A stretch of 64,000 bases of DNA from Candidatus Heimdallarchaeota archaeon (GTDB lineage: Archaea > Asgardarchaeota > Heimdallarchaeia > Heimdallarchaeales > Heimdallarchaeaceae), in assembly GCA_030668825.1 (NCBI GenBank), contig DAOVET010000002.1:15666-79665 (forward strand), written 5' to 3'. Of this stretch, positions 24,553 through 38,634 are shown piece by piece. Made by a program: the position numbers and the translations under genes. Below the pieces are notes generated by a model, which worked only from the letters and a program-made list of their open reading frames with translations, did not search any database and had not been told where the DNA came from. How positions within the stretch are numbered: the stretch's first letter is position 1; every line of letters starts with the position of its first letter.

Positions 24553-24648
24553 TTATTCTTTTTTTCTTTATTCCTTCTATTGCATTTGGTTAGTTTTTGG
24601 CTTATAATAAGTCTTAATAATTCCAGAAGGAAAATCAAGTTGAAAAGA

Positions 24649-26814
24649 ATGGTAGAATTACGAGGTATTGTCTCAGGTTTAGATTGTGCTAATTGCGTTG
24701 CTAAAGTTACTAGGCATTTGCAAAACGCAGTTGGTGTAAATAATGTACAATTAAACCTCGTGTCTACTAAGCTTATCGTAGAATATGATAAGGAACAGAT
24801 TAGTGAAAAAGAACTTATAAAGAATATCAAACAATCAGGATATAAGTTTGATAGCACTTACGAGCATAAATCATTCTTTAATATTAGACACAACAAAAAC
24901 CTTCTTCTCGCTATTTTTGGACTAGTTTTCCTTATTATTGCTTTAAGCACAAGTCAATTTCTACCTCTTAATTATAACTTGTTTTTTTATGTTCCTACTA
25001 TAGTAATTGGTGGAATTCCTGTTTATCTGAAAGCTTTTGGCTCAATTAGAACCAAAACAATTGACATAGACATTCTGATGGTTCTTGCTATAATTGGGGC
25101 AATGATAATAGGTGAGTGGGAAGAAGCAGCAGAAATTGTTGTTCTCTTTTCAATAGCGGAATTGTTAGAAGCATTTTCAATGGACAAAGCTAGACAATCA
25201 ATAAGAGAGTTAATGGATTTAACACCACCAACAGCAACTAGATTAATTAAAGGAAAAAAACACGAAGAAGTTCCTCTAGGTGATTTAGTTGTTGGTGATA
25301 GAGTAAGTGTTAAACCAGGAGCAAGAATTCCAATAGATGGAAAAATAGACTGGGGAAGAACAAATGTTGACCAGAGTCCAATAACTGGAGAATCTATCCC
25401 AGTCAATAAAGATGTTGGAGACAAAGTATTTTCAGGGTCTGTCAACATTGATGGTTATATTATTATTCGAGTAACACGGATGCCTGAAGAAAGTACAGTG
25501 GCTAGAATCAGGCAGCTGATAGAAGAAGCAGAGCAACAGAAATCAAAAAGAGAACAATTTATCCAAAGGTTTGCAAAATATTATACACCAATTATGGTGG
25601 GAATTGCATTATCAGTGTTTCTAATTTCTGGGATTTTTTTGAATATCCCAATTGATCCTTCAGTTCTTAAAGAAGGGCTCTATCAGAGTTTAGTAATTCT
25701 GGTAATCTCATGTCCTTGTGCTTTAGTGCTATCGACACCAATAACTGTAGTGACCGCAATAACTAGAGCTTCAAAAAGAGGTGTTTTAATAAAGGGAGGT
25801 AAATATCTTGAAGCTATATCTGACTTAGACACCCTAGCATTGGATAAAACTGGGACCTTATCAACTGGAAAACTAAAAGCTTACAAAGTTGAAGCTTTAG
25901 AAGGTTATTCTGAGAAGGAAATTATCGAAATAGCATATGGTTTAGAATATCATTCAGAACATAAAATTGCAGAAGCAATAATCAATCTGGGAAGAGAAAA
26001 CAATTCAAGATTGTTTGGATACAAAGATGTTGAAATAATGCCTGGGATGGGAATCAAAGGAACAAGAAAGAAAGTAACTTACTATCTAGGAAATGAATCG
26101 CTTGTTGATAGAATCATAGGTTTAGAATCTTGTGATTTACACTGTGAAGAAACTGAGAGTATTGTTAGTTATGTTTTAGACGATAAAACAATCTTAGCTC
26201 ATATTCACATGTCTGATGAGTTGCGAAGTGAAACCAAAGAAGCTGTCAATTCACTAAAGAAACTTGGAGTAAAAGATATTGTAATGCTCACTGGTGATAA
26301 TGAAGAAGTAGCATCAAAAATTGCTGAAGAATTAGATATTAATTATGAAGCAGAACTGTTGCCAGAACATAAAATGCAGTTTATCAAAAATCTCAAAGAA
26401 AAAAATCAAACAGTGGTTATGGTTGGTGATGGAATAAATGATTCACCCGCTTTAGCTCTTTCAGATGTTGGTATTGCAATGGGGGCAGCAGGAACAGCAA
26501 TTGCCATAGAAACAGCTGATGTTGTGCTTTCCTCAGATAATTTGTTCAGTCTACCTTATCTATTCAAACTAAGTAAAGAAACTAAAAGAACTATTCAAAT
26601 TAATATCTACTTATCCTTGTTTATCAAATTCTCATTTTTTGTACTTGTTTTAATTAATGCAACACCAATTGCCCTTGGGACATTTCTAGGAGCGAATTTA
26701 CTTTGGCTAGCTGTGCTAATTGGAGATATGGGAGCTTCATTATTGGTTATATTAAATGCAATGAGAGTTGGTAGAAAGAAGTTTTATTCTGGAAAGATGT
26801 TGCCAAAGAAATAA
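24649..26814 (+). CDS. heavy-metal P1B-type ATPase (ZntA/CadA-like)
   Basis: HMA motif GLDCANC, TGES, CPC, DKTGT, MLTGD, GDGINDSPAL. Confidence 0.95.
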   Translation: MVELRGIVSGLDCANCVAKVTRHLQNAVGVNNVQLNLVSTKLIVEYDKEQISEKELIKNIKQSGYKFDSTYEHKSFFNIRHNKNLLLAIFGLVFLIIALSTSQFLPLNYNLFFYVPTIVIGGIPVYLKAFGSIRTKTIDIDILMVLAIIGAMIIGEWEEAAEIVVLFSIAELLEAFSMDKARQSIRELMDLTPPTATRLIKGKKHEEVPLGDLVVGDRVSVKPGARIPIDGKIDWGRTNVDQSPITGESIPVNKDVGDKVFSGSVNIDGYIIIRVTRMPEESTVARIRQLIEEAEQQKSKREQFIQRFAKYYTPIMVGIALSVFLISGIFLNIPIDPSVLKEGLYQSLVILVISCPCALVLSTPITVVTAITRASKRGVLIKGGKYLEAISDLDTLALDKTGTLSTGKLKAYKVEALEGYSEKEIIEIAYGLEYHSEHKIAEAIINLGRENNSRLFGYKDVEIMPGMGIKGTRKKVTYYLGNESLVDRIIGLESCDLHCEETESIVSYVLDDKTILAHIHMSDELRSETKEAVNSLKKLGVKDIVMLTGDNEEVASKIAEELDINYEAELLPEHKMQFIKNLKEKNQTVVMVGDGINDSPALALSDVGIAMGAAGTAIAIETADVVLSSDNLFSLPYLFKLSKETKRTIQINIYLSLFIKFSFFVLVLINATPIALGTFLGANLLWLAVLIGDMGASLLVILNAMRVGRKKFYSGKMLPKK

Positions 26815-26854
26815 TTTAATAAAGATTTTTACTAAAGAAATATTGGTAGAGTTA

Positions 26855-28708
26855 ATGAGTAAACCTGTGAAACCGTTCAACAAAGCTATTGTTTACATAT
26901 TAATTGGTATTTTAGTCATTACTTCAATATTCGCTGTAATGATGTTTGGACCACGTCCTGGTCCACAAAGCAAGATGTTTAATTCTACACTTAGGTATTA
27001 TACAAAAGGGACAGAAAAATTATTTTACACAGATTATGCTCAATCTATCGTTCAAGATATCAAAGAAGTAGGCATTTTTGTTACCGATTATCAGATGGAG
27101 TATTCAACATTTTTAGATCAGGTTATCGGAGCGAAAGAATATGAAATGGCAATAATTGAGATTGAGGGTCAAAATGCCCCTCATTTTGAATTTTTATTTA
27201 AGGAGGGTGCAAGTTTAAACGTTTTCAATTTTCAAAATGCAATGGATAATGGTACTACGCTTAATATAATCAACAATATAACTCAAGAAATGGATTTCTA
27301 TGCAAGAAAAAATCTTTTCTTTACATTACAAGAACATCTGATGGATAATGTAGTTCCAATGGTACCCATTTTTACTCCAGCAAGAACATTTGCTTATTGG
27401 GATAACTTAGAAGGGTTTACAAGTAAGTGGGGAATATCTGATAGCCTACCATACATGTCCTTTAATGGATTACATAGCAATCAAGAATCAGTTACTGAGC
27501 TAAAAATAGGTATTGGAGGATGGTTTGATTTATGTCCTCTAACAATGAGGGAAGCTGGGGAGAAATTACTTATATCTCTTATCATGGATAAATTAGTTCA
27601 TCTGGATGAAAAAGGAGCTCCTACAAAATATGGGTTGATAGATAGTTGGGAATATCTTAATCAAACAACTTTATTGCTTCATGTAAGAGACAATGTTCAG
27701 TGGCAACCTGATGTGGATGGGATTTTTACTAGTGAAGAGTTTTCAGTTTATGATGTTATTTTTACTTTAGATATAATTAGCAGTATACATGCAAACGTAA
27801 ACTATCAACTCTATAAGTGGATAGATTCTTATGAAGTATATAATGGTACAACAGTCGCAGTTCACATTGATTCAGTTCCAGAAACAGTAGAAAGGGAATC
27901 TTATGCTTTTGCCCTCGAAGATTTGTCAGTTTATAGTTACCCTGAATACTATTTGGATGTTGAGAGCACAATTGAAGAAATAGTTGAATCAGCGAGATGG
28001 ATTAAGTATAGAGAAAATCCGTTTGGAACAGGAAAATACAAATTCAACGCAACGGAGAGTCATATAGATCTTACTGCTTTCTTAGAAAGATTTGACGGTT
28101 GGCATGGAATAGGGGTAGATCCTGGTAAGACTACAAACCTAGTTTTTGAAACCATTGAAGCTCAAACTGTTCCTGATAGTTACTCAATGAACTTAGAATT
28201 ACAAGAGGGGAGCAAGATAGACATAGCTGATTTTGGGAAGGATCCCGCAATGGAAATAGCAATACCTGATGATAACTTCAGGGTTGATTATAAAGTAGAA
28301 AACTCATTAATTTTCATAGCATTCAATTTAGAGAATGATGTCTTTGGAGGAACTAATAACTATGTACCAACCAATGAGACAGGGGTGTCAAAAGCCTTAG
28401 CAATACGTAAAGCTCTATCATCACTAGTCCATAAAACATTTCTGAATAATGCTTTTCATGAAGGAAAGTATAATATAACTGATTCACCAGTTTCTTGTTA
28501 TTATACAGATTATTATTATCAAAGTGTAACGAAGTATCCATACAGTATCTCTGAAGCCATTGAGTTCCTAAATTTGGCTGGATTCAACATATCAACAGAA
28601 ACAAATGGATCAGTAGAAGAATCAAGTTATGGAGTAATCAGTTCTGTTGTGGCTCTTGGAATCTTTACAGCAATTACGATTACATTAAGAAAAAGAAAAC
28701 AAAGGTGA
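26855..28708 (+). CDS. family-5 (peptide/nickel) ABC substrate-binding protein, circularly permuted, with TM helices at both ends
   Basis: LHVRDNVQW…DVIFT, PFGTGKYKF, IRKAL and YPYS…A..FL..AGF motifs; the normally C-terminal motifs come first. Confidence 0.8.
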   Translation: MSKPVKPFNKAIVYILIGILVITSIFAVMMFGPRPGPQSKMFNSTLRYYTKGTEKLFYTDYAQSIVQDIKEVGIFVTDYQMEYSTFLDQVIGAKEYEMAIIEIEGQNAPHFEFLFKEGASLNVFNFQNAMDNGTTLNIINNITQEMDFYARKNLFFTLQEHLMDNVVPMVPIFTPARTFAYWDNLEGFTSKWGISDSLPYMSFNGLHSNQESVTELKIGIGGWFDLCPLTMREAGEKLLISLIMDKLVHLDEKGAPTKYGLIDSWEYLNQTTLLLHVRDNVQWQPDVDGIFTSEEFSVYDVIFTLDIISSIHANVNYQLYKWIDSYEVYNGTTVAVHIDSVPETVERESYAFALEDLSVYSYPEYYLDVESTIEEIVESARWIKYRENPFGTGKYKFNATESHIDLTAFLERFDGWHGIGVDPGKTTNLVFETIEAQTVPDSYSMNLELQEGSKIDIADFGKDPAMEIAIPDDNFRVDYKVENSLIFIAFNLENDVFGGTNNYVPTNETGVSKALAIRKALSSLVHKTFLNNAFHEGKYNITDSPVSCYYTDYYYQSVTKYPYSISEAIEFLNLAGFNISTETNGSVEESSYGVISSVVALGIFTAITITLRKRKQR

Positions 28709-28713
28709 AATAA

Positions 28714-29433
28714 GTGAATAGAATAAATGAAATAAAAAATCTGGATCTCGAAGGAAAACCTTTGATACAATCATTTAGTGGGAGTGGAGCAATAGGAACA
28801 ATACTCTCTACATTTCTAGTGAAAGCATTGAAAATGGAACAAGTAGCAGTAATTCATGCAGATGAGCTACCACCAGTAGCAATAATCAAAGGGGGATTGA
28901 TAGAACAGCCGATAAGAATATTCCAAAATGACAAAATAGCTTTAATGTCTTGTGAAGTGAACATTCCTTACAATACTGTTTCAGATTTTATAGAAATGTT
29001 AATTGATTTTTATATTAAAAGTGGAGTCTCGCACATCGTACCAGTGGGGGGATTACCTGTCTTACAAAACCAATTTGAAGAAATTGAATGTTATGGAATA
29101 GCAAACAAACAAGAAACACTCACATTTCTAGAGGAAAAGGGAGTACAACTTCTAGAAGAAGGAATAGTATATGGAACAGTAGTTGAAACTTTAGAACTAT
29201 GTACTACAAAAGGGTTTGATTCGAGTTTTGCACTGTTGGTTGAATGTGACCCAAGTGTAGCTAGTTACGATTCAACAAAGAAACTAGTTCAAAATCTAGC
29301 TAAAATATTTGATTTTAAATTTGATGAAGAAGAATTTGAAAGTGTTTCAAATATTATCAGAACAAGGATAGAAGAAAGCACAAGATTCTTAAGAGAAGAA
29401 GCAATGGACAAAACAAGAGAAAGTCACCTCTAA
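28714..29433 (+). CDS. PAC2 family proteasome assembly chaperone
   Basis: F.G.GAIGTI, LPPVAII..G….PIRIF, VGGLP. Confidence 0.85.
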   Translation: MNRINEIKNLDLEGKPLIQSFSGSGAIGTILSTFLVKALKMEQVAVIHADELPPVAIIKGGLIEQPIRIFQNDKIALMSCEVNIPYNTVSDFIEMLIDFYIKSGVSHIVPVGGLPVLQNQFEEIECYGIANKQETLTFLEEKGVQLLEEGIVYGTVVETLELCTTKGFDSSFALLVECDPSVASYDSTKKLVQNLAKIFDFKFDEEEFESVSNIIRTRIEESTRFLREEAMDKTRESHL

Positions 29434-29538
29434 GACAAAGACTTCCATTAGGTGAGTTAAGCTGTTTTTTCTCTAAAACCTTGAATCTGAAAAGAATGGG
29501 GTTTTTTGTCGCGTTTTAACCTCTCAACAAAGATTACA

Positions 29539-29552
29539 AAAAAGTTTAAATA
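29539..29552 (+). promoter_or_regulatory. BRE-TATA promoter of the putative ncRNA
   Basis: AAAAAG-TTTAAATA (TATA at 29545-29552), about 22 nt before the 5' arm of the terminal helix at 29574. Confidence 0.55.
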
Positions 29553-29573
29553 TGTTCAAGGACAATTTTACTT

Positions 29574-29925
29574 GGTTAATGGCAGGCTATTTAGGAGCCA
29601 AATGGTTAGGTCAAAAAGGGACTGCAAACTGAACAGGAAGAGATATCCGATGCTCAGGGACAAGGTTGAACCCCTTTTTAGATGGTTTGAACCCCCATTT
29701 GGGCTTAGTTAAGACCTCCTAAGCCTGAAATCCCCCAGAACCAGACTTCGGTCTGGAATCAGACACTTATTTTGTCTGAAAAAAAAGGACCAGACATCTT
29801 CTGTCTGCCAGAAAGGTATGGTCTTGCTTGACCAGATCCTGGAACCCCCCTCAACCAAAACCCCGAAGCATCGAGTTAGAATAGCCTTCCTGTTCAGGCA
29901 GAAAACCCTTTAGGGTTTCTTAACC
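29574..29925 (+). ncRNA. unidentified ~350-nt structured RNA
   Basis: GC-enriched intergenic island. Ends pair (GGTTAA/TTAACC); nested long-range helices including a perfect 12-bp pair; at least five local hairpins including a cUUCGg tetraloop; upstream TATA and downstream T-rich tract. Confidence 0.65.
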
Positions 29926-29945
29926 TCTTTTCCTTTTAATTTCTG
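29926..29945 (+). terminator. pyrimidine/T-rich tract after the putative ncRNA
   Basis: TCTTTTCCTTTTAATTTCTG directly after the closing helix, typical of archaeal oligo-U termination. Confidence 0.4.
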
Positions 29946-30005
29946 TTCATTGATTTTTTGTGTTTTTTTTGTGTTTTTAAGCTATATTGCAATAATAATA
30001 TCATT

Positions 30006-32183
30006 ATGAAAAATTCAGATGCAAATATAGACCTTAGTAAGCTTCTAAATGATTCATACATAAGTGATCAATTCAATAACCTAGCTAAAGAAAAGAAGAA
30101 ATTTATTGAAGAGTTGACAGATGAGGAAAAGAAGATTTATACTGAAACTATATCTTATATTTTCACAGAAGAAAAATCTGATGCTAAAGTGTCTCGTAGT
30201 TTTGCAGAACCCTTTCAGGTGACATGGAGAAAAATACACTGCCAAAAAGATTTCTTGCGCACTGCTATTTTACCCAAAATCACAAAAGATGTTCTTGTTA
30301 AGGGTTTTCCTACAAGAATAGGAAGCCACCCTGGGTTTGATGATGTCTTCTTAGGAGTTGATTCCAAAGGAAAATTTGTCTTTGGAGTATTTGAACTGAA
30401 AACAAACAAGATTGGAAGTACTTCCCATAGACTCGATAAAGGAACCGAAGCAAGCAAATTGATAGCATTTAATTTGCGAAAAATGAGTACTAAATTTGTT
30501 GAAAAACTAGTTCTTGATGGTGTGGATTTGAAAAAGGCTCAACGTATTGGAAACGCTCTATTTAATAGATTCAGAATGTCAGCAACTGCAATCGGTTTTG
30601 ATTTTCAAAGAAAAGTATCAAGTATGGATATTGTTAAACTATTCCATAATTATTTTGATATACAGCTTATAAATAAAATTCTTGAAGCTGCAATTAAACA
30701 AAATCAGCTAATATCTTTAATAAAAACCTGCTATGCTTTCAAGAAGGAAATCAAAAACAAATATGTTACTGTTGTTAAAGATAAAACTACTGATGTCACA
30801 AATCTAATCAATCTAAATTACAAATACAAAAAAGGTAAAAAAATTGAAATTCCTATCAGTGGTGATTTCTTTAGGATTGATTATGATTTACATACCAAGG
30901 AGTTTAAATTTCCGCAGTTTTCTAGCTCTGCTTTAGGTGTTACTACTTTATCATTTGAGCAGAAAAGAGCTTATTTCAGTTTGAATAAACTAATTAGAAA
31001 AGCACTGAAGAAAGTTGAGCTATCAATTGTGGATGAAAGTGGGGAATTATTGCAAACAAATGAAATAATTAAAAGATTAAATTCAATGCAATCATTTGTG
31101 TATAAAGCACTGATTAAATCAAGAGTTTTTGATGATTTTCAGGTTTTTCATAAAGGTACAATGTTTTTCTTTCTTGAAACTTTATCAAGTGAGAGTAATG
31201 AGAAGAAAATATCTAGATATTTGAAGAATTATTCAAGCTATAAAGGAATAGCTAATTATCATTATCATCAAAAATGGATAGTTCCTTCTATTTTAGACTT
31301 AGGTATTTTTGTGGGAAATTTAAAAGAAGAAAATGAAAACTCGCGTAAATTCAGATTATTTCTGTATAAACATCTACTTGATGGAAGTTCTACTGATACA
31401 AAAGATATGGATATTGAAGAGATTGAAGAGCTTATAACCTCAAATTCTGAATTAAGAGATTATCTTATTGGAAATTTCAGACGTGATATAAGATTACCTG
31501 ATGGTTATTTCTGGACTCAAGCAATAAATTCCACACACTTGAAGAAAGCTTTGGTATTTTGTAATGTAAGAGATAGCAAACCCAAAAAGATGTATGGTTG
31601 TAATTTATATACAAGCTATGATTTTCAATACCTTCTAAAGGATTTGGAACTCGATTCCATACTCCTTCAAAATCCTATTACATTTGGAATTAATGAAGGT
31701 AGGTTAGTAGCAGATTTCAATACAGATAGGAATGTTAAGATTGCAAAAGTATGGATAGAATTTTTATCAGAAACCACAGATATTCCAAAGAATACACTAC
31801 AAAGACTCAATACTCATCTAGGACCTGGTGGTGGGATAGATCTATTATATCCACAAACTAACTGTGAATTACTCAGAATGTTGGTTGTAATTCTATTAAA
31901 ATTCCAAGAAAATTGGGACAAATTAACATTATACATTATTCAAGAAATAAAAACAAAACAAGTACAATGGGAAATTGAAACTTTAAAAAAGAACAACCCT
32001 GTTATATTTGTTAACAAAAGGAATCAAATAACAATTAATGGTGAAGAAGCAATCATAAGATTAGGAACATTAGATGGAACTAATTGGAGAACAACAAGAC
32101 CATTATACTGTTTAGCAAACAGCTCTTGTTGGTTTAATAATATCATCTCTATCTTCAAGAGAGCATACCAAGAAATTATTTAA
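30006..32183 (+). CDS. orphan ~725-aa protein with PD-(D/E)xK nuclease-like motifs
   Basis: AE…HPGFDDVFLG…FGVFELKT near the N-terminus; further LPDGYF and GGGIDLLY…QEIKT motifs. Confidence 0.6.
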   Translation: MKNSDANIDLSKLLNDSYISDQFNNLAKEKKKFIEELTDEEKKIYTETISYIFTEEKSDAKVSRSFAEPFQVTWRKIHCQKDFLRTAILPKITKDVLVKGFPTRIGSHPGFDDVFLGVDSKGKFVFGVFELKTNKIGSTSHRLDKGTEASKLIAFNLRKMSTKFVEKLVLDGVDLKKAQRIGNALFNRFRMSATAIGFDFQRKVSSMDIVKLFHNYFDIQLINKILEAAIKQNQLISLIKTCYAFKKEIKNKYVTVVKDKTTDVTNLINLNYKYKKGKKIEIPISGDFFRIDYDLHTKEFKFPQFSSSALGVTTLSFEQKRAYFSLNKLIRKALKKVELSIVDESGELLQTNEIIKRLNSMQSFVYKALIKSRVFDDFQVFHKGTMFFFLETLSSESNEKKISRYLKNYSSYKGIANYHYHQKWIVPSILDLGIFVGNLKEENENSRKFRLFLYKHLLDGSSTDTKDMDIEEIEELITSNSELRDYLIGNFRRDIRLPDGYFWTQAINSTHLKKALVFCNVRDSKPKKMYGCNLYTSYDFQYLLKDLELDSILLQNPITFGINEGRLVADFNTDRNVKIAKVWIEFLSETTDIPKNTLQRLNTHLGPGGGIDLLYPQTNCELLRMLVVILLKFQENWDKLTLYIIQEIKTKQVQWEIETLKKNNPVIFVNKRNQITINGEEAIIRLGTLDGTNWRTTRPLYCLANSSCWFNNIISIFKRAYQEII

Positions 32184-33372
32184 CATAATTTGGTTCTTCC
32201 CCCTTATCTTCTAGATCTTGTTGTTCAGTTGGATATACTGTCTTTCTTGACGATTTCACTATTTTACTAAAAACTCTATAACTACCAATAGAAACCAAGA
32301 TAATTGAGAGAATGATGAGAGCTTTCAGCATAATGTCAAGCCAGAGATTTAAGGAGTGTTTCTGAACATCTTCAGGATTTAACACCAACATGAAATTAGA
32401 AGGGTAAAACTCATAGAGAGTGCTTAAAACCAACAATAATACTATCCTTAGTGTAAAGAATATTGTTATTATCAAAGCTGTTCTTCCTACAACCCACAAT
32501 GACGGATACTTTTCTTTGTTTAAAACTCCCCTTATAGAATTGGATTTTCCTCTTATTTTCCTATAATGGTAATAGATTGAACTTGTATATTCTACATTAG
32601 GGTTTTTCGATAATTTTCTCTGCACTCCGAAAATAAATTGAATAACATGATAAGAAAACCCAGCAAGAGCTATATAAAAACAACCTATTGAAAAATAGTG
32701 GAAAATGTCATAGAGTAAACACCAAGTGTAAGAAATTAACTGTGGAAAATAGAAGTAAGGATTAGTATATAAGAAACTAAACATAAAAACCGAAATGAGA
32801 AGAAAAATTATTTTCCTCACAAACATGTTATCGTCATTATAACTGTGAGCTAGTCTGTTTCCTACTCTATTCTCAATTTCTGTTACTTCACGTGACATCT
32901 TATTATAACCAATAATATTAAACAGGGCTAAACCTACAAACACACCAATAGTTAATGCCCAATTAATCTCAAATGGATTGGAACGAGTAAAGTCGAAATA
33001 TTCTGTAAAATTTATTGAAGTAGATTCATCATAGAACAGTAAAAACAACTTATTAGATGAGTTAATGTATTGATTTAGGAGTTTAATCACCAAAAGAGTA
33101 TCAACTAATACACTAAGACCCCTACGAATTCGACAATTTTCAGTTATCTCAAAATCATTAATCGTCACTTCAAAACCAATGATTTTTGGTAATTTCTTTA
33201 GTTCTACGTGAACTTCTTTGTAATCTTCTAGAACTTCTATATTTTCAATAATTATGTCCTCTACAGATCCTTGAGCTGTTTTAGTATTTAGGAATATAAT
33301 AACGAATAAGAGAGTAATCAACAAGCATCTTTTCATTATATATTTATAGAAAAAAGTGCATATATACACCAC
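32176..33372 (-). CDS. hypothetical polytopic membrane protein
   Basis: Signal-like N-terminus and about five hydrophobic helices. Confidence 0.6.
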   Translation of the reverse strand: MVYICTFFYKYIMKRCLLITLLFVIIFLNTKTAQGSVEDIIIENIEVLEDYKEVHVELKKLPKIIGFEVTINDFEITENCRIRRGLSVLVDTLLVIKLLNQYINSSNKLFLLFYDESTSINFTEYFDFTRSNPFEINWALTIGVFVGLALFNIIGYNKMSREVTEIENRVGNRLAHSYNDDNMFVRKIIFLLISVFMFSFLYTNPYFYFPQLISYTWCLLYDIFHYFSIGCFYIALAGFSYHVIQFIFGVQRKLSKNPNVEYTSSIYYHYRKIRGKSNSIRGVLNKEKYPSLWVVGRTALIITIFFTLRIVLLLVLSTLYEFYPSNFMLVLNPEDVQKHSLNLWLDIMLKALIILSIILVSIGSYRVFSKIVKSSRKTVYPTEQQDLEDKGEEPNYVK

Positions 33373-33451
33373 AAAAATATCTTACAAAAATATTCGATAT
33401 GGAGGGAAACTTTAAAGTATTAACTTGAGAATTAGAGGGTTAAGATGATGA

Positions 33452-33946
33452 AGAATTCTTGTAGACAATCAAGAAATTCTTCATTATACTGAAAATCAAC
33501 TGGCTGATTACAGATGTAAAACTGTAGGTTTAATCTATCAGTCTTACAATTTAGCGCAGTTCTTGACTGTCAAAGAAAATATAGAGTTTCCAATGTTATT
33601 GGCAAAAACACCACTAGAAAAAAGAGAAAAACGTATTGAAGAGCTAACAGAATTTCTAGAAATTAGTAGATACATTGAGCAAAAACCTGAATTCTTGAGT
33701 GGAGGGGAACAACAACGAGTTGCGATTGCTATTGCCTTAGCAAATAATCCTCCAATAATATTAGCTGATGAGCCTACAGGTAATATTGATGTAGAAACAG
33801 CAGAAACAGTTTACACCAATTTATCTCATATGTGCCAAATCTATAACACAACTCTTGTGATAGCCTCACATGATCCAAAAGCCTCAGAATATACAGAAAG
33901 AGAGGTAATTCTAACAGAATTAGAATCCAATAAGATAAGAAGGTGA
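33452..33946 (+). pseudogene. 5'-truncated ABC ATPase (LolD/MacB-like)
   Basis: Has the Q-loop (GLIYQSYNL), [23 protein letters not shown] and SHD, but two in-frame TGA stops at 33446-33451 precede it and no Walker A is present. Confidence 0.8.
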
Positions 33947-34100
33947 AAATTAGTAGAAGAAAGAAACTTATCGAATATAGAAAAGCCTGTGATGATTTAT
34001 GTAAATTTAATGGAGCTAGCTATGTTCCTTTAAATTGAAGGTGAGTTATAATGATATGTAAATACGAATTATTCACTTTTTTGTTTTTGAATTATGGAAC

Positions 34101-35516
34101 TTAAAAATATTTTTCTAGTTTCTTAGTAGAGAGAACCAGTACAATTAAAGAAATTGAAATGGTGCTGTATCTCTTCTGAGATTTAGAATTCAAATCAGAA
34201 GTAAAACGAAGACTATATCTGTTCAAATTAAAAAAATCTATTTCTGATATTGGAATACGATAATAGTAAATAGAACTTGGTCCCCAAGTAGCAGAAGTTT
34301 TTTTACTCCTATCAAAACTAGACCAAGCAAAATGGAAATAGTTTTCACTTAGATCGCAGTGAGCGTAAAATTCATTGTATTTTGATGTACTTGTTAATTG
34401 AACTTCCTCAAAACTCTCTCCATCGTATTTACCCAAGAATATGTCCATTTGATCACTATTGTTTAAGAAAGTTCTTCGTGTATATACAAAACGAAAAGTG
34501 CCATCTTCAAGAACGCAAATAGAGTCATCATAAAAAATCATGTTACCATAAAAGCTGACTATTTCTTGAGTAGTAGAATAAGTAGAGTTGAAAACTTTTG
34601 TAAGAAAAAGACGACTGATATTAGTTTCATGGCCACTTTCATAATAAAATACATTGAATGTGTTATCAGAAGGAATTATAGCTATAGAATATTGGGGAGG
34701 ATTACCTATTCCCAATTTATAAAGTTCCCAACCGTTTTCTGGCCAATTAATAGCTAAATAAGGATGCATATTGTTTTCATTTATATAGTTCCCCCATAGC
34801 AAAGCTATAGTAGAATTCACAACTTTGAAATCGCCAGGAGCTACTGAAAAATCATCAACGATTTCGGGTAACACCGTATGCATGAATATACCCTTGTTTT
34901 CTGTGCCATTGTAGATAACAGGTGTTTGAACACCAACGGTACTTCCATTTATTTGAAAAAGCTGATGCGTGATGAATGCAAACACAGCATCTCCAGAACC
35001 AGAAAATAGCCAGTTTAAAACAGGTTTTCTCACACCTACGCTACAATTGTAGGGCACATTTTCTAGAGCTGGATGTTCCTCCCAGGTATTATTGATTACT
35101 GTTAAAACCTCCCCTAGATCGTTTTCATATCCAGTTGTTGCATAAATATAAATAAAAGGTCTTTTTTGTGGGTCTAATCCAATTCTTATTTGAAAAAAAG
35201 TACCTAAAACCATCGAATTAAATCTTGGAATGAAAGCTATAGTGTCTTCCTTGAGATTTAATCTGGTATAGATCAAGTCTATGTCGTCTCCGATATCAGA
35301 TGTAGCATTAGAGAAACAGAAATGGGTTATGTTATCATTTTCTACAACCATGTCTGATAGAATACTTGCATTCCATAAAGCATTGGGATAAACATATTTA
35401 TCAGTAATTGGTTTCTTTGGTTGTTCGATAACTAGGTAATATATAGGTAAAGCAATCGCAAGGCTAATACTTATTAAAATCCCTATTGAAATAACAATTC
35501 TCAGATACTTTTGCAT
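34101..35516 (-). CDS. membrane-anchored extracellular protein, probable beta-propeller
   Basis: N-terminal TM; beta-rich repeats (HFCFS, HFAWS, IYYYR). Confidence 0.6.
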   Translation of the reverse strand: MQKYLRIVISIGILISISLAIALPIYYLVIEQPKKPITDKYVYPNALWNASILSDMVVENDNITHFCFSNATSDIGDDIDLIYTRLNLKEDTIAFIPRFNSMVLGTFFQIRIGLDPQKRPFIYIYATTGYENDLGEVLTVINNTWEEHPALENVPYNCSVGVRKPVLNWLFSGSGDAVFAFITHQLFQINGSTVGVQTPVIYNGTENKGIFMHTVLPEIVDDFSVAPGDFKVVNSTIALLWGNYINENNMHPYLAINWPENGWELYKLGIGNPPQYSIAIIPSDNTFNVFYYESGHETNISRLFLTKVFNSTYSTTQEIVSFYGNMIFYDDSICVLEDGTFRFVYTRRTFLNNSDQMDIFLGKYDGESFEEVQLTSTSKYNEFYAHCDLSENYFHFAWSSFDRSKKTSATWGPSSIYYYRIPISEIDFFNLNRYSLRFTSDLNSKSQKRYSTISISLIVLVLSTKKLEKYF

Positions 35517-35723
35517 TAGCTCACCTAATAGTCGTTCAATACATCTTATATAGCTTTTCTCGCATTCTACAGTTTGCCTTATATTAAAATTTCAAGATTA
35601 TAAGTATTATTTAGAGATTCTCTTTTAATTTGGAAATGTTTCAATACTCAACAAATCACTTTTAAATTTATAATCCTATCAGTATTGTTTGGAGATGATG
35701 ATTTTACAAGCACAAAAATTGTG

Positions 35724-37388
35724 CTATATCTTGCTTTTTCTTTTCGAACTAAATTTGAAATAACCAAATACAGCTAGTGGGATTAGTACAACTAAAGAAA
35801 GAAACGAGTAGTAAATGTTATTATTTCTATAGATTGGAGGTTCAGAAAGAGGATAAAGGTCTTGTGCATTTGCAAATCCATCTATATAATAGCTTCCCAC
35901 TACAACAAAATAGTCAGTCCAGTAATTCCCTTCTTCTGATTCTTCATCGTACCAAATATTATTTACACCATCGTCTTTAGCTTGAGCAGTGTTAAAATAT
36001 TGATTATTTTCTATGAAAGAATTATGATGTATTGAATTATTCCTTGAGTATAAATCCAGAACTACTCCCCATAGAAGGTTTTCACTTAAAAAATTGTAAC
36101 TAAGTTCATTTTTGGAAGAGCTTTCTAGAACTATACCTGCAAAATTTGAGTTACACGTATTATTGATGATCGCCATTCCTATGGAACCATAAGTATAGAT
36201 TCCGAGATTCCAATTATCAGAGCAAAAATTGTTTTGAATTGTTCCTTTAATACAATAACGTAGGGTTATACCTGTATGAGTATAGGATAGGTTTTGGTTC
36301 AATATTTGAATATTGGAACAATCTGCAAGAATTAACTGACCGTAAATAGGTTGGGTAATTTTTAGATCATCTAAACCCACAAAATAACCAAATTCTTTGT
36401 CATTAACCGAATTATTTTGGACAATGTAGGAGTGATAGTCTTCTCTGTTTAGTTCATAGAATTCGAAACCACTTCTATACAGAGCATTGTTAGTTATTTT
36501 TGACTCCTCAGCATCGATTAAGTATATCCCAATTCCATTACCAGAACAAATATTATTGTCAACTGTTACATTCCCCCCATTTACTATGACAATCCCCATA
36601 CCAGAGCAATGGTTGTTTGAAACAAAAGAATCATTGGATTCATAAAGCGCTATATTAGTCTGGCTATTATCTGTGCACAAGTTATTTACTACAGTTGATT
36701 TGTTGGATTGAGATAAACTTATGCCCCCATGGTAAGTATTTTCATAACATCTATTATCAGCTACGTACGATAAAGGTGATTCTTCCACAACAATCCCTCC
36801 CATACTATTTGAATTGCAAGTGTTATTATTAATCAAACACGCTTCACTTAGGTCTACAAATATCCCTAACCAACCATCCTGAATACACCGATTGTTTTCA
36901 ATTTGTGATTCAGAAGAGTTCCCAACATGAATACCAACAAAGCTATTATAGTTGCAAGTATTGTTAATTATTTTCGTGCCTGGTGAATGATTGATTCGAA
37001 TGCCTGTTGCAGAATTTCCCACACAAATGTTGTCTTCTATTATAGTTGTTTCTTTCCTTACAGAATCTATAACTATACCGCCCCTATAAGCATCTACAAA
37101 ACAATTCTGAATTTTAAAATATTTAGTCGTATTATGGATATAGATTCCTTTATCCTCAGAGGTTGTTATGTTCAAATTTTCAATCCTGAAAGGTTCTTGA
37201 GGAGTCCCAGTACCTAATAATCCATAATCTGTGAAATTTGAATCATTTGTTATTATAATTGGTAATGAGTCTAAGTAAGAAAAAGAATAGGGATAAGTAG
37301 TACTTTCTGAAACAATTATATTCTGAACAGTAATCTCAGTTGAGCTTATTAATATAACTAAAATAAACATTTGATATAATTTATTCAT
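35724..37388 (-). CDS. NosD/right-handed parallel beta-helix surface protein
   Basis: Many 'I.NNTC..N…GI' repeats, GNYWTDY…DLYPL, C-terminal TM + basic tail. Confidence 0.88.
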   Translation of the reverse strand: MNKLYQMFILVILISSTEITVQNIIVSESTTYPYSFSYLDSLPIIITNDSNFTDYGLLGTGTPQEPFRIENLNITTSEDKGIYIHNTTKYFKIQNCFVDAYRGGIVIDSVRKETTIIEDNICVGNSATGIRINHSPGTKIINNTCNYNSFVGIHVGNSSESQIENNRCIQDGWLGIFVDLSEACLINNNTCNSNSMGGIVVEESPLSYVADNRCYENTYHGGISLSQSNKSTVVNNLCTDNSQTNIALYESNDSFVSNNHCSGMGIVIVNGGNVTVDNNICSGNGIGIYLIDAEESKITNNALYRSGFEFYELNREDYHSYIVQNNSVNDKEFGYFVGLDDLKITQPIYGQLILADCSNIQILNQNLSYTHTGITLRYCIKGTIQNNFCSDNWNLGIYTYGSIGMAIINNTCNSNFAGIVLESSSKNELSYNFLSENLLWGVVLDLYSRNNSIHHNSFIENNQYFNTAQAKDDGVNNIWYDEESEEGNYWTDYFVVVGSYYIDGFANAQDLYPLSEPPIYRNNNIYYSFLSLVVLIPLAVFGYFKFSSKRKSKI

Positions 37389-37416
37389 TGTATACTTATC
37401 CCCTTTGTTATTTTAT

Positions 37417-37674
37417 TTATTGTGGTGTGATGCCCTCTATTGATAAACAGAATCCATTTCCATAATCATTCCATCTTGTTGGAGTTTGGTTTGCGTTGTA
37501 GTAATTAACTGACCCTACATAATGATTATACCACCACCATGCATCTATGAAAATATAATCGAAATCTGCAGTTATTGAACCTGCATATCCATGTTCAGAA
37601 GGATTTCCATTCCAAGAATAGTGCAGAAAACCCTTTGGGGTTTCAACTTTTCTTAACTTTTCTTTGTTTTTCAT
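37417..37674 (-). CDS. short hypothetical protein, possibly a gene remnant
   Basis: 85 aa; aromatic, extracellular-looking C-part without a signal peptide. Confidence 0.3.
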   Translation of the reverse strand: MKNKEKLRKVETPKGFLHYSWNGNPSEHGYAGSITADFDYIFIDAWWWYNHYVGSVNYYNANQTPTRWNDYGNGFCLSIEGITPQ

Positions 37675-37827: not shown

Positions 37828-38634
37828 ATGGAAGAAGAATCTAAAGATGATTTACTAGAAGAAGCTGAAGAGGAGCTTAGTGAAGAAGTAAAGGAAGAAC
37901 TCAAAGAAGAGCTTGAGGAGGAAGTAGAAGAGTTCAGTGAAGAAGAAAAAGAAGATCTCGAAGAAGAACTCGAAGAAGAACCTGAGGAAGAAATAGATGA
38001 GCTTGTAGAGGAACTTGAAGAAATTGCAGAAGATGAAGACGAAATAGAAGAGATCGAAGAAGAAGCAGTTGAAGAAGTAGTAGAAGAAGCTGTAGAGGAT
38101 GTTGTCGAAGAAATTCTTGATGAAATAGATGAAGAAGTAGAAGAAGAGGTTCTTGAAGATATTGTGGAAGAAGTGGTTGAAGAAGCTGAAGATGAAGCTG
38201 AGGAAGTGCAAATTGTTTCTGAACCAGAATATAAATCTGAACCTGCGCCAGAAGGGATTCCAGAAGATATCAAGAAATTAGGTGGTAACATCCAAATTAT
38301 TTTGAAAGATGTCGATGGTGATTTGATTCCATTTGGGTATCATTTACAGAAAGACAAACTAATTATCAAAGAAGATGAAGCAATGAAAGTTAAAATTGTG
38401 TTATCATGGTTATACAAACAAAATAGGAGCGTAGAAGAGATTTCTGATGCCACAAAACTAAGCATCGAAGAGATTGAAAAAATACTCATAAATCCTTTAT
38501 ACTTCGGTAAGATTTACTTCGAAGGAGCACTTGTGAAAGGCAATCATGAACCCATATTAACTGAAAGATATTGCAAATTAAATGAAATAAATACTGATGA
38601 AATTGAGGAAAAATATCTTTCCACAAAGAAATAA
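37828..38634 (+). CDS. poly-acidic protein with C-terminal serine-recombinase 'recombinase' (DNA-binding) domain
   Basis: aa 1-127 are Glu/Asp low-complexity; then PFGY…LII.EDEA..V…S…I…IL.NPLYFGKI…GNHEPIL. Confidence 0.75.
   Translation: MEEESKDDLLEEAEEELSEEVKEELKEELEEEVEEFSEEEKEDLEEELEEEPEEEIDELVEELEEIAEDEDEIEEIEEEAVEEVVEEAVEDVVEEILDEIDEEVEEEVLEDIVEEVVEEAEDEAEEVQIVSEPEYKSEPAPEGIPEDIKKLGGNIQIILKDVDGDLIPFGYHLQKDKLIIKEDEAMKVKIVLSWLYKQNRSVEEISDATKLSIEEIEKILINPLYFGKIYFEGALVKGNHEPILTERYCKLNEINTDEIEEKYLSTKK

Follow-up and report, generated by a model that had tools for sequence, protein, structure and literature searches.

A probable dedicated gene for a circular, structured non-coding RNA in one family of Heimdall archaea

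Our analyses make it very probable that a short locus in the genome of a Heimdallarchaeota archaeon (G000) is a single-copy gene dedicated to a structured non-coding RNA whose mature form is a circle, a conclusion on identity and biogenesis, with function excluded, which is drawn because a bulge-helix-bulge motif, covariation of its stems, back-joined RNA contigs, and the genes for a splicing endonuclease and the RtcB ligase all occur together. The features of the locus within the window, i.e. the whole stretch of 64,000 nucleotides that was analyzed, are listed in Table 1. It is on the + strand that this region forms a genuine gene for a structured RNA, previously uncatalogued. A first-pass annotation of this DNA had proposed a novel large non-coding RNA, and this holds up: the locus has no Rfam match, is single-copy and syntenic, covaries, and is present in RNA libraries. 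The mature molecule does not span the extent given there (29574-29925) and corresponds to the excised part, about 29628-29903. The strand, which had been left in doubt, is settled as + because G-U pairs occur on that strand, a TATA box lies upstream, and the geometry of the splice motif fits. Both the upstream TATA and the T-rich tract downstream are where they had been annotated; the TATA box precedes the inferred, unmapped transcript start by ~22-25 nt, and the promoter block (G)TTTAAATAG was aligned in 17/17 homologues and is also found upstream of homologues in other genera. Judging by the letters alone, transcription would terminate at the T-rich run after 29917.

Table 1. Features of the proposed circular RNA gene and of the adjoining insertion (window positions)
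Feature	Position	Strand	Remark
Promoter, purine-rich stretch then TATA box TTTAAATA	29538-29552 (TATA 29545-29552)	+	sequence reading
5' leader ("5' exon")	29574-29627	+	variable hairpin, H1 5' strand, CUGC, first two bulge bases
H1 5' strand AAAGGGA	29615-29621	+	within leader
Central-helix 5' strand CUGC	29622-29625	+	within leader
5' bulge AAA	29626-29628	+	predicted cut after second base
Excised, circularised RNA (proposed)	29628-29903	+	276 nt; homologues 213-290 nt
H2 5' strand CUGAACAGGAAG	29629-29640	+	pairs with 29886-29897; closing stem of circle
Helix B 5' strand CGAUGC	29648-29653	+	pairs with GCATCG, 29868-29873
Inner helix GGUUGA / UCAACC	29664-29669 / 29851-29856	+	closes multi-branch core
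Hairpin with invariant loop GACCUCCUAA	29701-29726	+	stem varies between genera
First CAGAC hairpin, CCAGAC-UUCG-GUCUGG	29741-29756	+	in most genera; absent in g13
Second CAGAC hairpin	29760-29778	+	clade-specific insertion, 7/17 aligned congeners
Third CAGAC...GUCUG hairpin, then CCAGAA	29791-29815 (hairpin 29791-29807, then CCAGAACCCC)	+	
Optional hairpin UGGUC/GACCA	29811-29841	+	missing in 10/17 congeners
H2 3' strand, GCAG, 3' bulge AAA	29886-29904 (29886-29897, 29898-29901, 29902-29904)	+	predicted cut after 29903
3' trailer ("3' exon")	29905-29937	+	H1 3' strand, alternative hairpin, T-rich tract
H1 3' strand ACCCUUU	29905-29911	+	within trailer
Alternative trailer hairpin AAACCCUUUAGGGUUU	within 29905-29937	+	sequence reading
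~7.7-kb insertion	29920-37622	.	directly after RNA gene; absent in close relative G009
Direct repeat of gene 3' end	37623-37644	+	21/22 nt identical to 29898-29919

The leader and trailer pair to form a helix (H1), a 4-bp central helix CUGC/GCAG with an AAA bulge on each strand, and a 12-bp helix (H2), so that the order along the transcript is AAAGGGA / CUGC / AAA / 12 bp ... 12 bp / GCAG / AAA / ACCCUUU. This bulge-helix-bulge motif, of the kind that archaeal tRNA-splicing endonuclease takes as its substrate, holds in all five genera, fits the definition quoted for such motifs, and has the geometry of the tRNA-Leu(CAA) intron of the source genome itself. The 5' bulge reads AAA in 22/22 sequences, and the four pairs of the central helix are 100% paired, two of them being changed on both sides (CUGC/GCAG, AUGU/GCAU, and CUAC/GUAG, with GUGU/GCAC in genus g13). 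In H1 (8 pairs, 77.8% paired), 7/8 pairs are changed on both sides, and in H2 (12 pairs, 99.2% of cells paired) 4/12; the g13 version of H2 is CCAGAUAGGAAG paired with CUUCCUAUCUGG. Taken over the 30 stem pairs of the motif, 93.7% of cells are paired and 16/30 pairs are changed on both sides, where shuffles gave 5.3±1.4 (0/500 as high) and slid controls at most 5; the collection of homologues and covariation check suggested in the first-pass annotation thus came out in favor of a structured RNA. In the G000 clade, an A stands opposite an A beside the 3' bulge, which slightly relaxes it to what is in effect a bulge of 4 nt or a 1x4 loop. The leader sequence is conserved between clades only at paired positions. 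The 12-bp helix CTGAACAGGAAG/CTTCCTGTTCAG had been located correctly at first reading, and the meaning of the outer helices as a bulge-helix-bulge processing site with a circular product had been missed. With regard to the processing enzymes, two paralogues of the splicing endonuclease EndA (PF01974; C50, 100.8 bits, and C11, 54.6 bits) and an RtcB ligase (PF01139; C107, 529.9 bits) were found.

RNA of the locus, which the earlier annotation had suggested looking for by RNA-seq, is present in metatranscriptome contigs from three independent studies (runs X15, X16, and X19), and these contigs cover only 29626-29904. At the 5' bulge they are preceded by letters of the 3' end, and at the 3' bulge they continue with 29629 onward, so that all three runs carry the back-join ...CAGGCAG-AAA-CUGAACAGG... 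predicted for cuts in both bulges. The evidence consists of assembled, strandless contigs of relatives, which differ from the source genome by substitutions at 29766 and 29771 and by a 31-nt skip, and a circular-to-linear ratio is not derivable from them; no contig was aligned to the leader, the trailer, or the flanking genes, and these uncovered parts were not counted as absence. In the scheme that we propose, one ~350-nt transcript would be made from the TATA promoter, its leader and trailer would pair into the bulge-helix-bulge motif, EndA would cut each bulge behind its second base, and RtcB would join the ends into the 276-nt circle from 29628 to 29903, with the ligated leader and trailer as a by-product.

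The + strand folds with a minimum free energy of -120.1 kcal/mol as compared with -94.8±5.3 in shuffles (z -4.78; 0/100 shuffles as good), and the GC content of the RNA region is 0.44-0.48 versus 0.26-0.39 in the flanks. The interior helices were judged by eye and from single-sequence folds. Both nested helices of the first-pass annotation, CGATGC/GCATCG (helix B) and GGTTGA/TCAACC, are in place: helix B has 6 pairs, 100% paired, with three pairs changed on both sides, and the inner helix has 5 pairs that are invariant within the genus and a counterpart UUUGG...CCAAA in g13, read by eye. The GGCTTAG/CTAAGCC hairpin was likewise present, and its loop GACCUCCUAA occurs in 15/15 homologues shown; the stem that carries it differs by genus (GGCUUAG/CUAAGCC, GGCUUUU/AAAAGCC, and CAGACUU/AAGUCUG), and in g13 the flanking stem is replaced and the loop motif is partly paired. 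Three CAGAC hairpins do exist in the source genome, but only the relatives closest to it have the second, and the first, which reads CCAAAC-GAAA-GUUUGG in G041, is absent from g13. At the third, the block CUUCUGUCUGCCAGAA does not vary within the genus, and counterparts are seen in g10 and in g13, where it reads CAGAC-UUUUA-GUCUG-CCAGAACCCCC; none was identified in g11 and g12, and in the G008 group of g1 the invariant 3' strand has another 5' partner. The stems are thus real, but the proposal that they are repeated protein-binding sites is weakened because two of the three are lineage-specific. The TGGTC/GACCA hairpin (29819-29834) is also present, but it is optional among relatives and absent from the RNA contigs of X16 and X19, where it accounts for the 31-nt skip. 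Two further pairings fall within the leader and trailer, where the sequence is unconserved, and relatives do not share them: the terminal pair GGTTAA/TTAACC, which does exist in G000, and the GGCAGGCTATT/AATAGCCTTCC match, a 10-of-11 complement; the pseudoknot or switch proposed for the latter is not conserved.

Homologues occur once per genome in all five genera of one Heimdall (Asgard) family. BLAST found a homologue in 26/30 other genomes of the family and the motif pattern in 25/30, including both g13 genomes; outside the family, the pattern matched 11/369 genomes of the phylum versus 11 with the reversed control pattern. A partial covariance model (R1) found 24/30 in the family and 1/52 elsewhere in the class; it has only 5 base pairs and missed g13, and the lack of homologues outside the family therefore applies to searches of this sensitivity. 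A scan of genome contigs gave 33 stretches, with titles naming Heimdallarchaeota (18), other archaea (4), or bacteria or a methanogen (11); so large a collection is expected to contain a few 19-mers by chance. The two-motif pattern also met at least 119 metagenome stretches, and none of the 80 loci listed matches the RNA profile at E ≤ 1e-3; these pattern matches are chance. A match to f2 in G025 lies inside a coding region and was likewise set aside as chance. The source genome (2.76 Mb) contains a single full copy together with a decayed 3' fragment, and the gene is preceded by a solute-binding-protein gene in 16/16 loci and by a PAC2 gene in 14/16. A dispersed repeat of the MITE type, which had been named as a possible undoing of the RNA reading, is at odds with the one full copy and the conserved left flank.

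Several other accounts of the locus have to be weighed against a dedicated circular RNA. According to PMC12918454, pre-rRNAs of archaea are cut out at motifs of this type and pass through a circular form before they are re-linearised, and the circle could in the same way be a transient intermediate, as for pre-16S rRNA, of a working RNA that is linear, possibly permuted, and opened elsewhere; contigs cannot separate circles from permuted linear molecules. On the other hand, no second set of ends is seen in the contigs, though contigs show ends poorly, and conservation of the closing stem and the junction loop equals that of the core, so we regard an intermediate as improbable. Less probable still is that the element is an intron, with the leader and trailer as exons that belong either to a small host RNA or to the 5' UTR of an mRNA further downstream, and the circle as a by-product or selfish passenger. 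The architecture is exactly intron-like, G013 and G006 have a co-oriented ORF of ~225 aa within ~75 nt downstream, and no TATA box was read in the 45 bases after each module. However, conservation of the leader and trailer is limited to their paired positions, while that of the excised part is strong and accompanied by covariation, and in G001, G009, G000, and g13 the gene that follows is a different one or lies on the opposite strand. Nor did the locus show what would mark a tRNA or rRNA intron, the exons being unconserved, ARAGORN finding 0 tRNAs in the window, and Rfam giving 0 matches at the gathering score in the 64 kb scanned as encoded, i.e. unpermuted. A translated circle, suggested by the one + frame in G000 that runs across the junction with a single stop in 92 codons, has next to nothing to commend it: the longest stop-free stretch is 91 codons in G000 but 64 in the 96%-identical G009 and ranges from 37 to 99 codons over 24 circles, 11 of which have lengths that are not multiples of 3, the optional 31-nt elements shift the frame, and the substitutions are compensatory. 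The coding circle was rejected on the ground that its frame is broken in close relatives.

The earlier suggestion of a very divergent RNase P or SRP RNA, to which we give just as little probability, is refuted. The size, the GC richness, and the paired ends would suit it, and RF00373, the RNase P RNA model, has no match in G000, which made an RNase P identity attractive until it was dropped on the separate loci of the congeners: RNase P RNA is above the cut-off in 37/41 related genomes, and in 21/24 congeners, e.g. G001, the canonical gene lies at another locus than the circle gene. A full-length archaeal SRP RNA (RF01857) is encoded at G000:C32:15855-16162 (93.2 bits, E 1.2e-21), and at E ≤ 10 the region 29450-30050 gave two irrelevant weak Rfam matches, both outside the RNA, with no partial match to RNase P or SRP RNA. 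There is also a slim chance, lower than for the intron and higher than for a translated circle, that the locus is primarily a platform for DNA recombination (an attachment site or integron-like) in which RNA structure is incidental. The 3' end of the gene is a hot spot for DNA insertion. The locus of G009 aligns to G000:C45 up to window position 29969 and resumes at 37623; the G000 insertion of ~7.7 kb is bounded by a 22-nt repeat, whose far copy (family D8, 95%) contains GCAG, the A-run, and the trailer hairpin. Between the repeats lie ORFs of 741, 398, and 471 aa, for which no Pfam, PHROG, NCBIfam, or PADLOC family was found, an ABC ATPase fragment, and a NosD-like beta-helix protein. Partial copies of the last 35-75 nt of the gene lie downstream and co-oriented in 6/6 genomes with both on one contig, and the gene content between the copies varies. 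Against a recombination platform as the main role, the contigs indicate that the RNA is expressed and processed, and its many G-U pairs are sensible only as + strand RNA. A search for tyrosine recombinases gave none in the neighborhood (no match in G000, G004, or G013, and a single one in G001 on another contig), and the 19-mer of the repeat matched 0 viral contigs. The repeat boundaries vary and older copies decay, as for relics at hot spots in tRNA genes. The hot spot behaves in a tRNA-gene-like manner and, if an integrating element were found, the gene would be a second non-tRNA RNA gene so used.

With regard to the function of the circular RNA, the invariant features are a loop that resembles the 16S rRNA tail and repeated AACCCC tracts, the recurring (G)AACCCC runs having already been seen at first reading. 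The segment ACCUCCUA (29714-29721) equals the last 8 nt of the 16S rRNA of the congener G001, whose 3' end is ...GGAUCACCUCCUA, a post-hoc 8-nt match made to G001, the G000 assembly being without a 16S rRNA. Among 1399 ORF starts, GGAG/GAGG is ~3-fold enriched at -14 to -11. A tentative reading, to which we give perhaps one chance in a few, is that the circle is an exonuclease-resistant scaffold showing an invariant copy of the 16S 3' tail, i.e. the anti-Shine-Dalgarno sequence, together with C tracts, and that it modulates translation or small-subunit maturation. Such a scaffold would carry four to six single-stranded (G)AACCCC tracts and may titrate G-rich, Shine-Dalgarno-like mRNA leaders or, alternatively, a protein with affinity for either the 16S tail or C-rich RNA. 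Rather doubtful, when its two parts are taken jointly, is a circular mimic of the 16S tail combined with alternative back-splicing at the downstream copies: with its C-rich tracts, the mimic would compete with ribosomes or with maturation factors that bind the 16S tail for Shine-Dalgarno-like sequences, and the downstream copies of the 3' half of the motif could serve as alternative partners of the single 5' half, read-through transcripts then giving larger circles with whole ORFs, i.e. archaeal alternative back-splicing. No bulge-helix-bulge motif was placed by eye on the 16S processing stem of G001. A telomerase template was considered for the AACCCC tracts and rejected, G000 being without tandem G-rich arrays or GC-rich contig ends. 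As a side observation, UUGAACCCC is complementary to GGGGUUCAA in 4/30 tRNAs, which is recorded as a lead only for a link to the tRNA T-arm.

The likeness to known systems is closest on the side of biogenesis. Circular tRNA introns are described in PMC12558985, and the circle gene shares with archaeal bulge-helix-bulge introns the substrate motif and its geometry, the inferred enzymes, and the circular excised part; it differs in having no recognisable host tRNA or rRNA and unconserved "exons", and the excised RNA is 213-290 nt long, highly structured, and conserved across the family. In archaeal pre-rRNA, a processing stem formed by the leader and trailer contains the motif and the excised RNA is circularised, as described in PMC12918454 and 10.64898/2026.03.23.713588. 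The arrangement here is the same as for circular pre-16S/23S and 23S rRNA in that the leader and trailer of one unit form a motif-bearing stem that leads to circularisation, but the RNA is non-ribosomal and ~5-10 times smaller, its gene is preceded by a separate promoter, and it is confined to one family. In Thermoproteus, a permuted SRP RNA gene is restored by circularisation (PMC4731332), which also matures a non-coding RNA other than tRNA or rRNA through a circle; that RNA belongs to a known family and its gene is permuted, whereas here no family was matched in an unpermuted scan and the SRP RNA has a gene at another locus. The tRNA intronic circular RNAs of metazoans (PMC6614914) are stable non-coding circles made by the tRNA splicing machinery, but they are introns of eukaryotic tRNA genes without a conserved structured core.

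On the side of function, CsrB/RsmZ "sponge" RNAs and small RNAs that target ribosome-binding sites with C-rich loops are bacterial and linear; they are comparable in mode of action only, with repeated single-stranded motifs on a scaffold and a Shine-Dalgarno-complementary loop, and have no sequence or structural relationship to the circle RNA. The archaeal tRNA-Trp intron is a C/D box RNA; no C/D box motifs were read in the excised RNA. To our knowledge, the circles that archaea produce from bulge-helix-bulge motifs arise in the maturation of tRNA and rRNA, as by-products or intermediates, or serve to repair an SRP gene that is permuted. The present RNA was not found described in a literature search that left supplementary files, possibly with circRNA tables, outside its scope. 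Here, a whole transcription unit seemingly exists only for a conserved, highly structured circle of viroid-like size, which is abundant enough to assemble from sediment metatranscriptomes. The finding offers a new RNA family to model and a natural test case for the purpose of circularity in archaea, and the circle may give access to the control of translation in Heimdall archaea that are uncultured.

The structured RNA at this locus is real: the helices and hairpins named in the first-pass annotation were all recovered in place, and the plus strand folds at -120.1 kcal/mol against -94.8 ± 5.3 in 100 dinucleotide shuffles (z -4.78; minus strand, z -2.91). GC content peaks at 0.44-0.48 over the RNA, against 0.26-0.39 in the flanks, and a mechanical ORF listing gave a 68-aa frame as the sole ORF spanning the region. 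The first-pass annotation had left covariation to be examined, and the four outer helices, to which the formal pair count was confined (22 sequences, 93.7% of cells paired), proved compensatory: both bases vary in 16 of 30 pairs, compared with 5.3 ± 1.4 in 500 shuffles, none of which reached 16, and a control with the partner strand slid by 1-3 columns gave five such pairs at most. Many of these pairs are G-U when read on the plus strand, which fixes the strand of the RNA as plus, contrary to the earlier view that some G-U pairs favored the minus strand and left the matter uncertain. As in other structured RNAs, the alignment consists of an invariant core broken by optional hairpins inserted at fixed sites. 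Because MAFFT misaligned the interior of the distant genera, the interior helices were judged by eye, outside the formal count, and appear likewise compensatory; for example, the loop-bearing hairpin stem reads GGCUUAG/CUAAGCC, GGCUUUU/AAAAGCC, or CAGACUU/AAGUCUG according to genus, and another hairpin CCAGAC/GUCUGG or CCAAAC/GUUUGG.

Features of the RNA locus and its flanks (window coordinates)
Feature	Position	Remarks
Upstream genes	24580-29433	heavy-metal P-type ATPase (HMA, E1-E2 ATPase), family-5 solute-binding protein, PAC2-family protein
TATA box TTTAAATA	29545-29552	upstream of the RNA; read from sequence
RNA gene	~29574-29937 (+)	
Predicted excised circle	~29628-29903	
Splice motif, 5' side		outward-in: AAAGGGA (H1), CUGC, AAA, CUGAACAGGAAG (H2)
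Splice motif, 3' side		CUUCCUGUUCAG (H2'), GCAG, AAA, ACCCUUU (H1')
T-rich run	after 29917	read from sequence
Direct repeat, left	29898-29919	22 nt
Insertion	29920-37622	~7.7 kb
Inserted ORFs		741, 398, and 471 aa; no family match
ABC ATPase fragment	33563-33946	127 aa; within the insertion
NosD-like beta-helix protein	35724-37388	within the insertion; weakly similar to phage tail-spike families
Direct repeat, right	37623-37644	22 nt
Acidic-repeat protein	37828-38634	268 aa

Judged from its sequence, the set of outer helices is a bulge-helix-bulge splice motif, the central helix of which covaries as CUGC/GCAG, AUGU/GCAU, and CUAC/GUAG and, in the genus g13 of the same family, as GUGU/GCAC. The in-genome reference for its geometry was the tRNA-Leu(CAA) gene (G000:C11:8680-8794, G000 being the source genome), which carries a canonical 30-nt intron with a clean motif of this type. 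Its order of elements (anticodon stem, 4 bp, bulge, intron helix, 4 bp, bulge, anticodon stem) is the same as in the RNA gene; in the intron, the 5' cut falls after the second base of the first bulge and the 3' cut in the second bulge. The source genome encodes two endonuclease-family proteins (188 and 190 aa) as well as RtcB. Symmetric cuts in both AAA bulges followed by ligation would yield a junction with three A residues. The stretch is contained, whole or in part, in 20 public runs, of which six are RNA libraries containing a small share of it, and in contigs aligned from four RNA runs belonging to four studies, every aligned piece lies inside 29626-29904. In runs X16 and X19, contigs starting at 29626 carry just before it the 13 letters leading up to and including 29901, and contigs ending at 29904 run on into the letters of 29629 onward; one 208-nt contig from run X15 joins 29845-29882 and the next 18 letters to 29626-29777. 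At the back-join, ...CAGGCAG-AAA-CUGAAC..., there are exactly three A, the number that such cuts and ligation would give. Compared with the source genome, the RNA contigs have substitutions at positions 29766 and 29771 and lack 29811-29841, a trait of some congeners, and therefore derive from relatives. The run index samples words of 31 letters, longer than the 12-nt inverted repeat, so the join is probably not an assembly artefact; as assembled contigs, these data are blind to strand, amount, and circular-to-linear ratio. The circle would measure 276 nt in the source genome and 213-290 nt in 24 homologues.

Known identities were considered for this RNA. The comparison with known families proposed in the first-pass annotation gave no match to Rfam 15 at gathering score across the entire 64-kb window, and at E<=10 two weak, irrelevant matches, on the opposite strand downstream of the RNA; ARAGORN found no tRNA in the window, and telomere-like repeats are absent from the source genome. 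The suggestion of a very divergent RNase P or SRP RNA was wrong. The archaeal SRP RNA lies at C32:15855-16162 (E 1.2e-21), its 93.2 bits being slightly below the Rfam gathering score of 96.5, so that annotation at that threshold would miss it. RNase P was briefly attractive, as the assembly (2.76 Mb, 138 contigs, 90.6% complete) contains no match to its RNA, and was dropped because 37 of 41 related genomes, 21 of the 24 congeners among them, have an RF00373 match above cut-off, at loci that differ from the candidate (in the congener G001, C1:492966-493289 compared with 620477-620816 for the candidate homologue). The lack of an RNase P gene therefore reflects a gap in the assembly, as does that of the 16S rRNA 3' end; congeners possess both, and these gaps call for caution over any claim of absence from this genome. 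A coding circle was likewise rejected: the source genome has one plus-strand frame with a single stop, but this frame is not kept in homologues. The longest stop-free stretch is 64 codons in the 96%-identical genome G009 and 37-99 codons over 24 circles, 11 of which have lengths that are not multiples of three.

By BLAST, the RNA occurs in 26 of the 30 other genomes of the family: in 22 of the 24 congeners (genus g1), each with one full-length homologue, and in 2/2 genomes of g10, 1/1 of g11, 1/1 of g12, and 0/2 of g13. A two-motif pattern (the invariant loop and CCCCAGAA) matched 25 of 30 family genomes, among them both closed g13 genomes, where the locus is a clear homologue with different neighbors. 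The same pattern matched one of 16 genomes in the three other families of the order and, in a set of 400 from across the phylum, 11 of the 369 that lie outside the family, a reversed control pattern also matching 11. A small covariance model, built on the central domain, detected the RNA in 24 of the 30 family genomes and in one of 52 elsewhere in the class, with limited sensitivity since it misses g13. Public contigs with an invariant 19-mer of the gene are titled Candidatus Heimdallarchaeota archaeon in 18 of 33 cases. In all 16 loci examined, the gene follows the solute-binding-protein gene, and in 14 it follows the PAC2 gene, these two forming its conserved left flank. The copy count left to be made by the first-pass annotation indicates a single-copy gene, with one full copy and one decayed 3' fragment at G000:C27:870-943, which holds the last ~70 nt in a divergent intergenic region and carries mutations in both splice-motif strands, that of 12 nt and that of 4 nt.

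The 3' end of the gene is an insertion hot spot, a second phenomenon. Relative to G009, the source genome carries a strain-specific insertion of ~7.7 kb immediately 3' of the RNA gene, bounded by a direct repeat. Wherever partial copies of the final 35-75 nt, comprising the trailer hairpin and the 3' half of the motif, share a contig with the gene, they are downstream of it in the same orientation (six of six genomes: G001, G004, G013, G006, G021, and G016). Of six extra copies in G001, two lie in divergent intergenic regions and four begin 0-30 nt from the stop of a co-oriented ORF; in G013 and G006, the gene-adjacent copy begins at the stop codon of a ~223-225-aa co-oriented ORF, and a second G013 copy lies ~20 nt past the next ORF. 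In G004, just two of the five extra copies are this close behind an ORF. The ORFs that separate the copies are unrelated in family, comprising small secreted proteins, membrane zinc-ribbon proteins, and an HTH protein, and older copies are decayed. Integrating elements leave this same pattern at tRNA genes; however, no tyrosine recombinase was found near any of the four loci examined, nor did any viral contig contain the 19-mer. Since any of these copies makes a competent 3' half-site for the one 5' half-site, alternative pairing in read-through transcripts is possible, if speculative. On its right, the hot spot has a conserved neighbor in G009, G013, and G004: the acidic-repeat protein, with a long, very acidic GAA/GAG-rich region of 17 overlapping repeat copies. 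A stretch of G001 (C1:619000-638500) carries five clustered paralogous NosD-like beta-helix genes (~510-545 aa, minus strand) and several paralogous ORFs of ~215-225 aa with N termini resembling signal peptides, interleaved with copies of the 3' end of the RNA gene.

Single-stranded elements invariant in all genera are GACCUCCUAA (a hairpin loop in most genera), CCCCAGAAC, CCAGAACCCC, and further (G)AACCCC tracts. Eight loop bases are identical to the 16S rRNA 3' end of G001, and Shine-Dalgarno-like GGAG/GAGG is enriched ~three-fold 11-14 nt before the starts of 1399 long ORFs in the source genome. The RNA might, very tentatively, act as a stable scaffold for Shine-Dalgarno-like or other G-rich RNA, or for a protein reading the 16S tail or C-rich RNA. 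The T-arm of four of 30 tRNAs is complementary to the tracts, which may offer a lead only. The 16S rRNA gene of G001 (L103:1470-1500, minus strand) has ~30 extra bases between ...CUGCGGAAG and GGAUCACCUCCUA, near its 3' end, which could be a small insertion, an expansion, or a mini-intron of the last helix. The literature describes circular rRNAs and circular omega RNAs as well as tRNA introns, and a paper on the Thermoproteus SRP RNA reports a further case. Full-text searches covering main articles found no description of a stand-alone circular noncoding RNA in Heimdall archaea. The RNA is a new family, produced by an already known mechanism.
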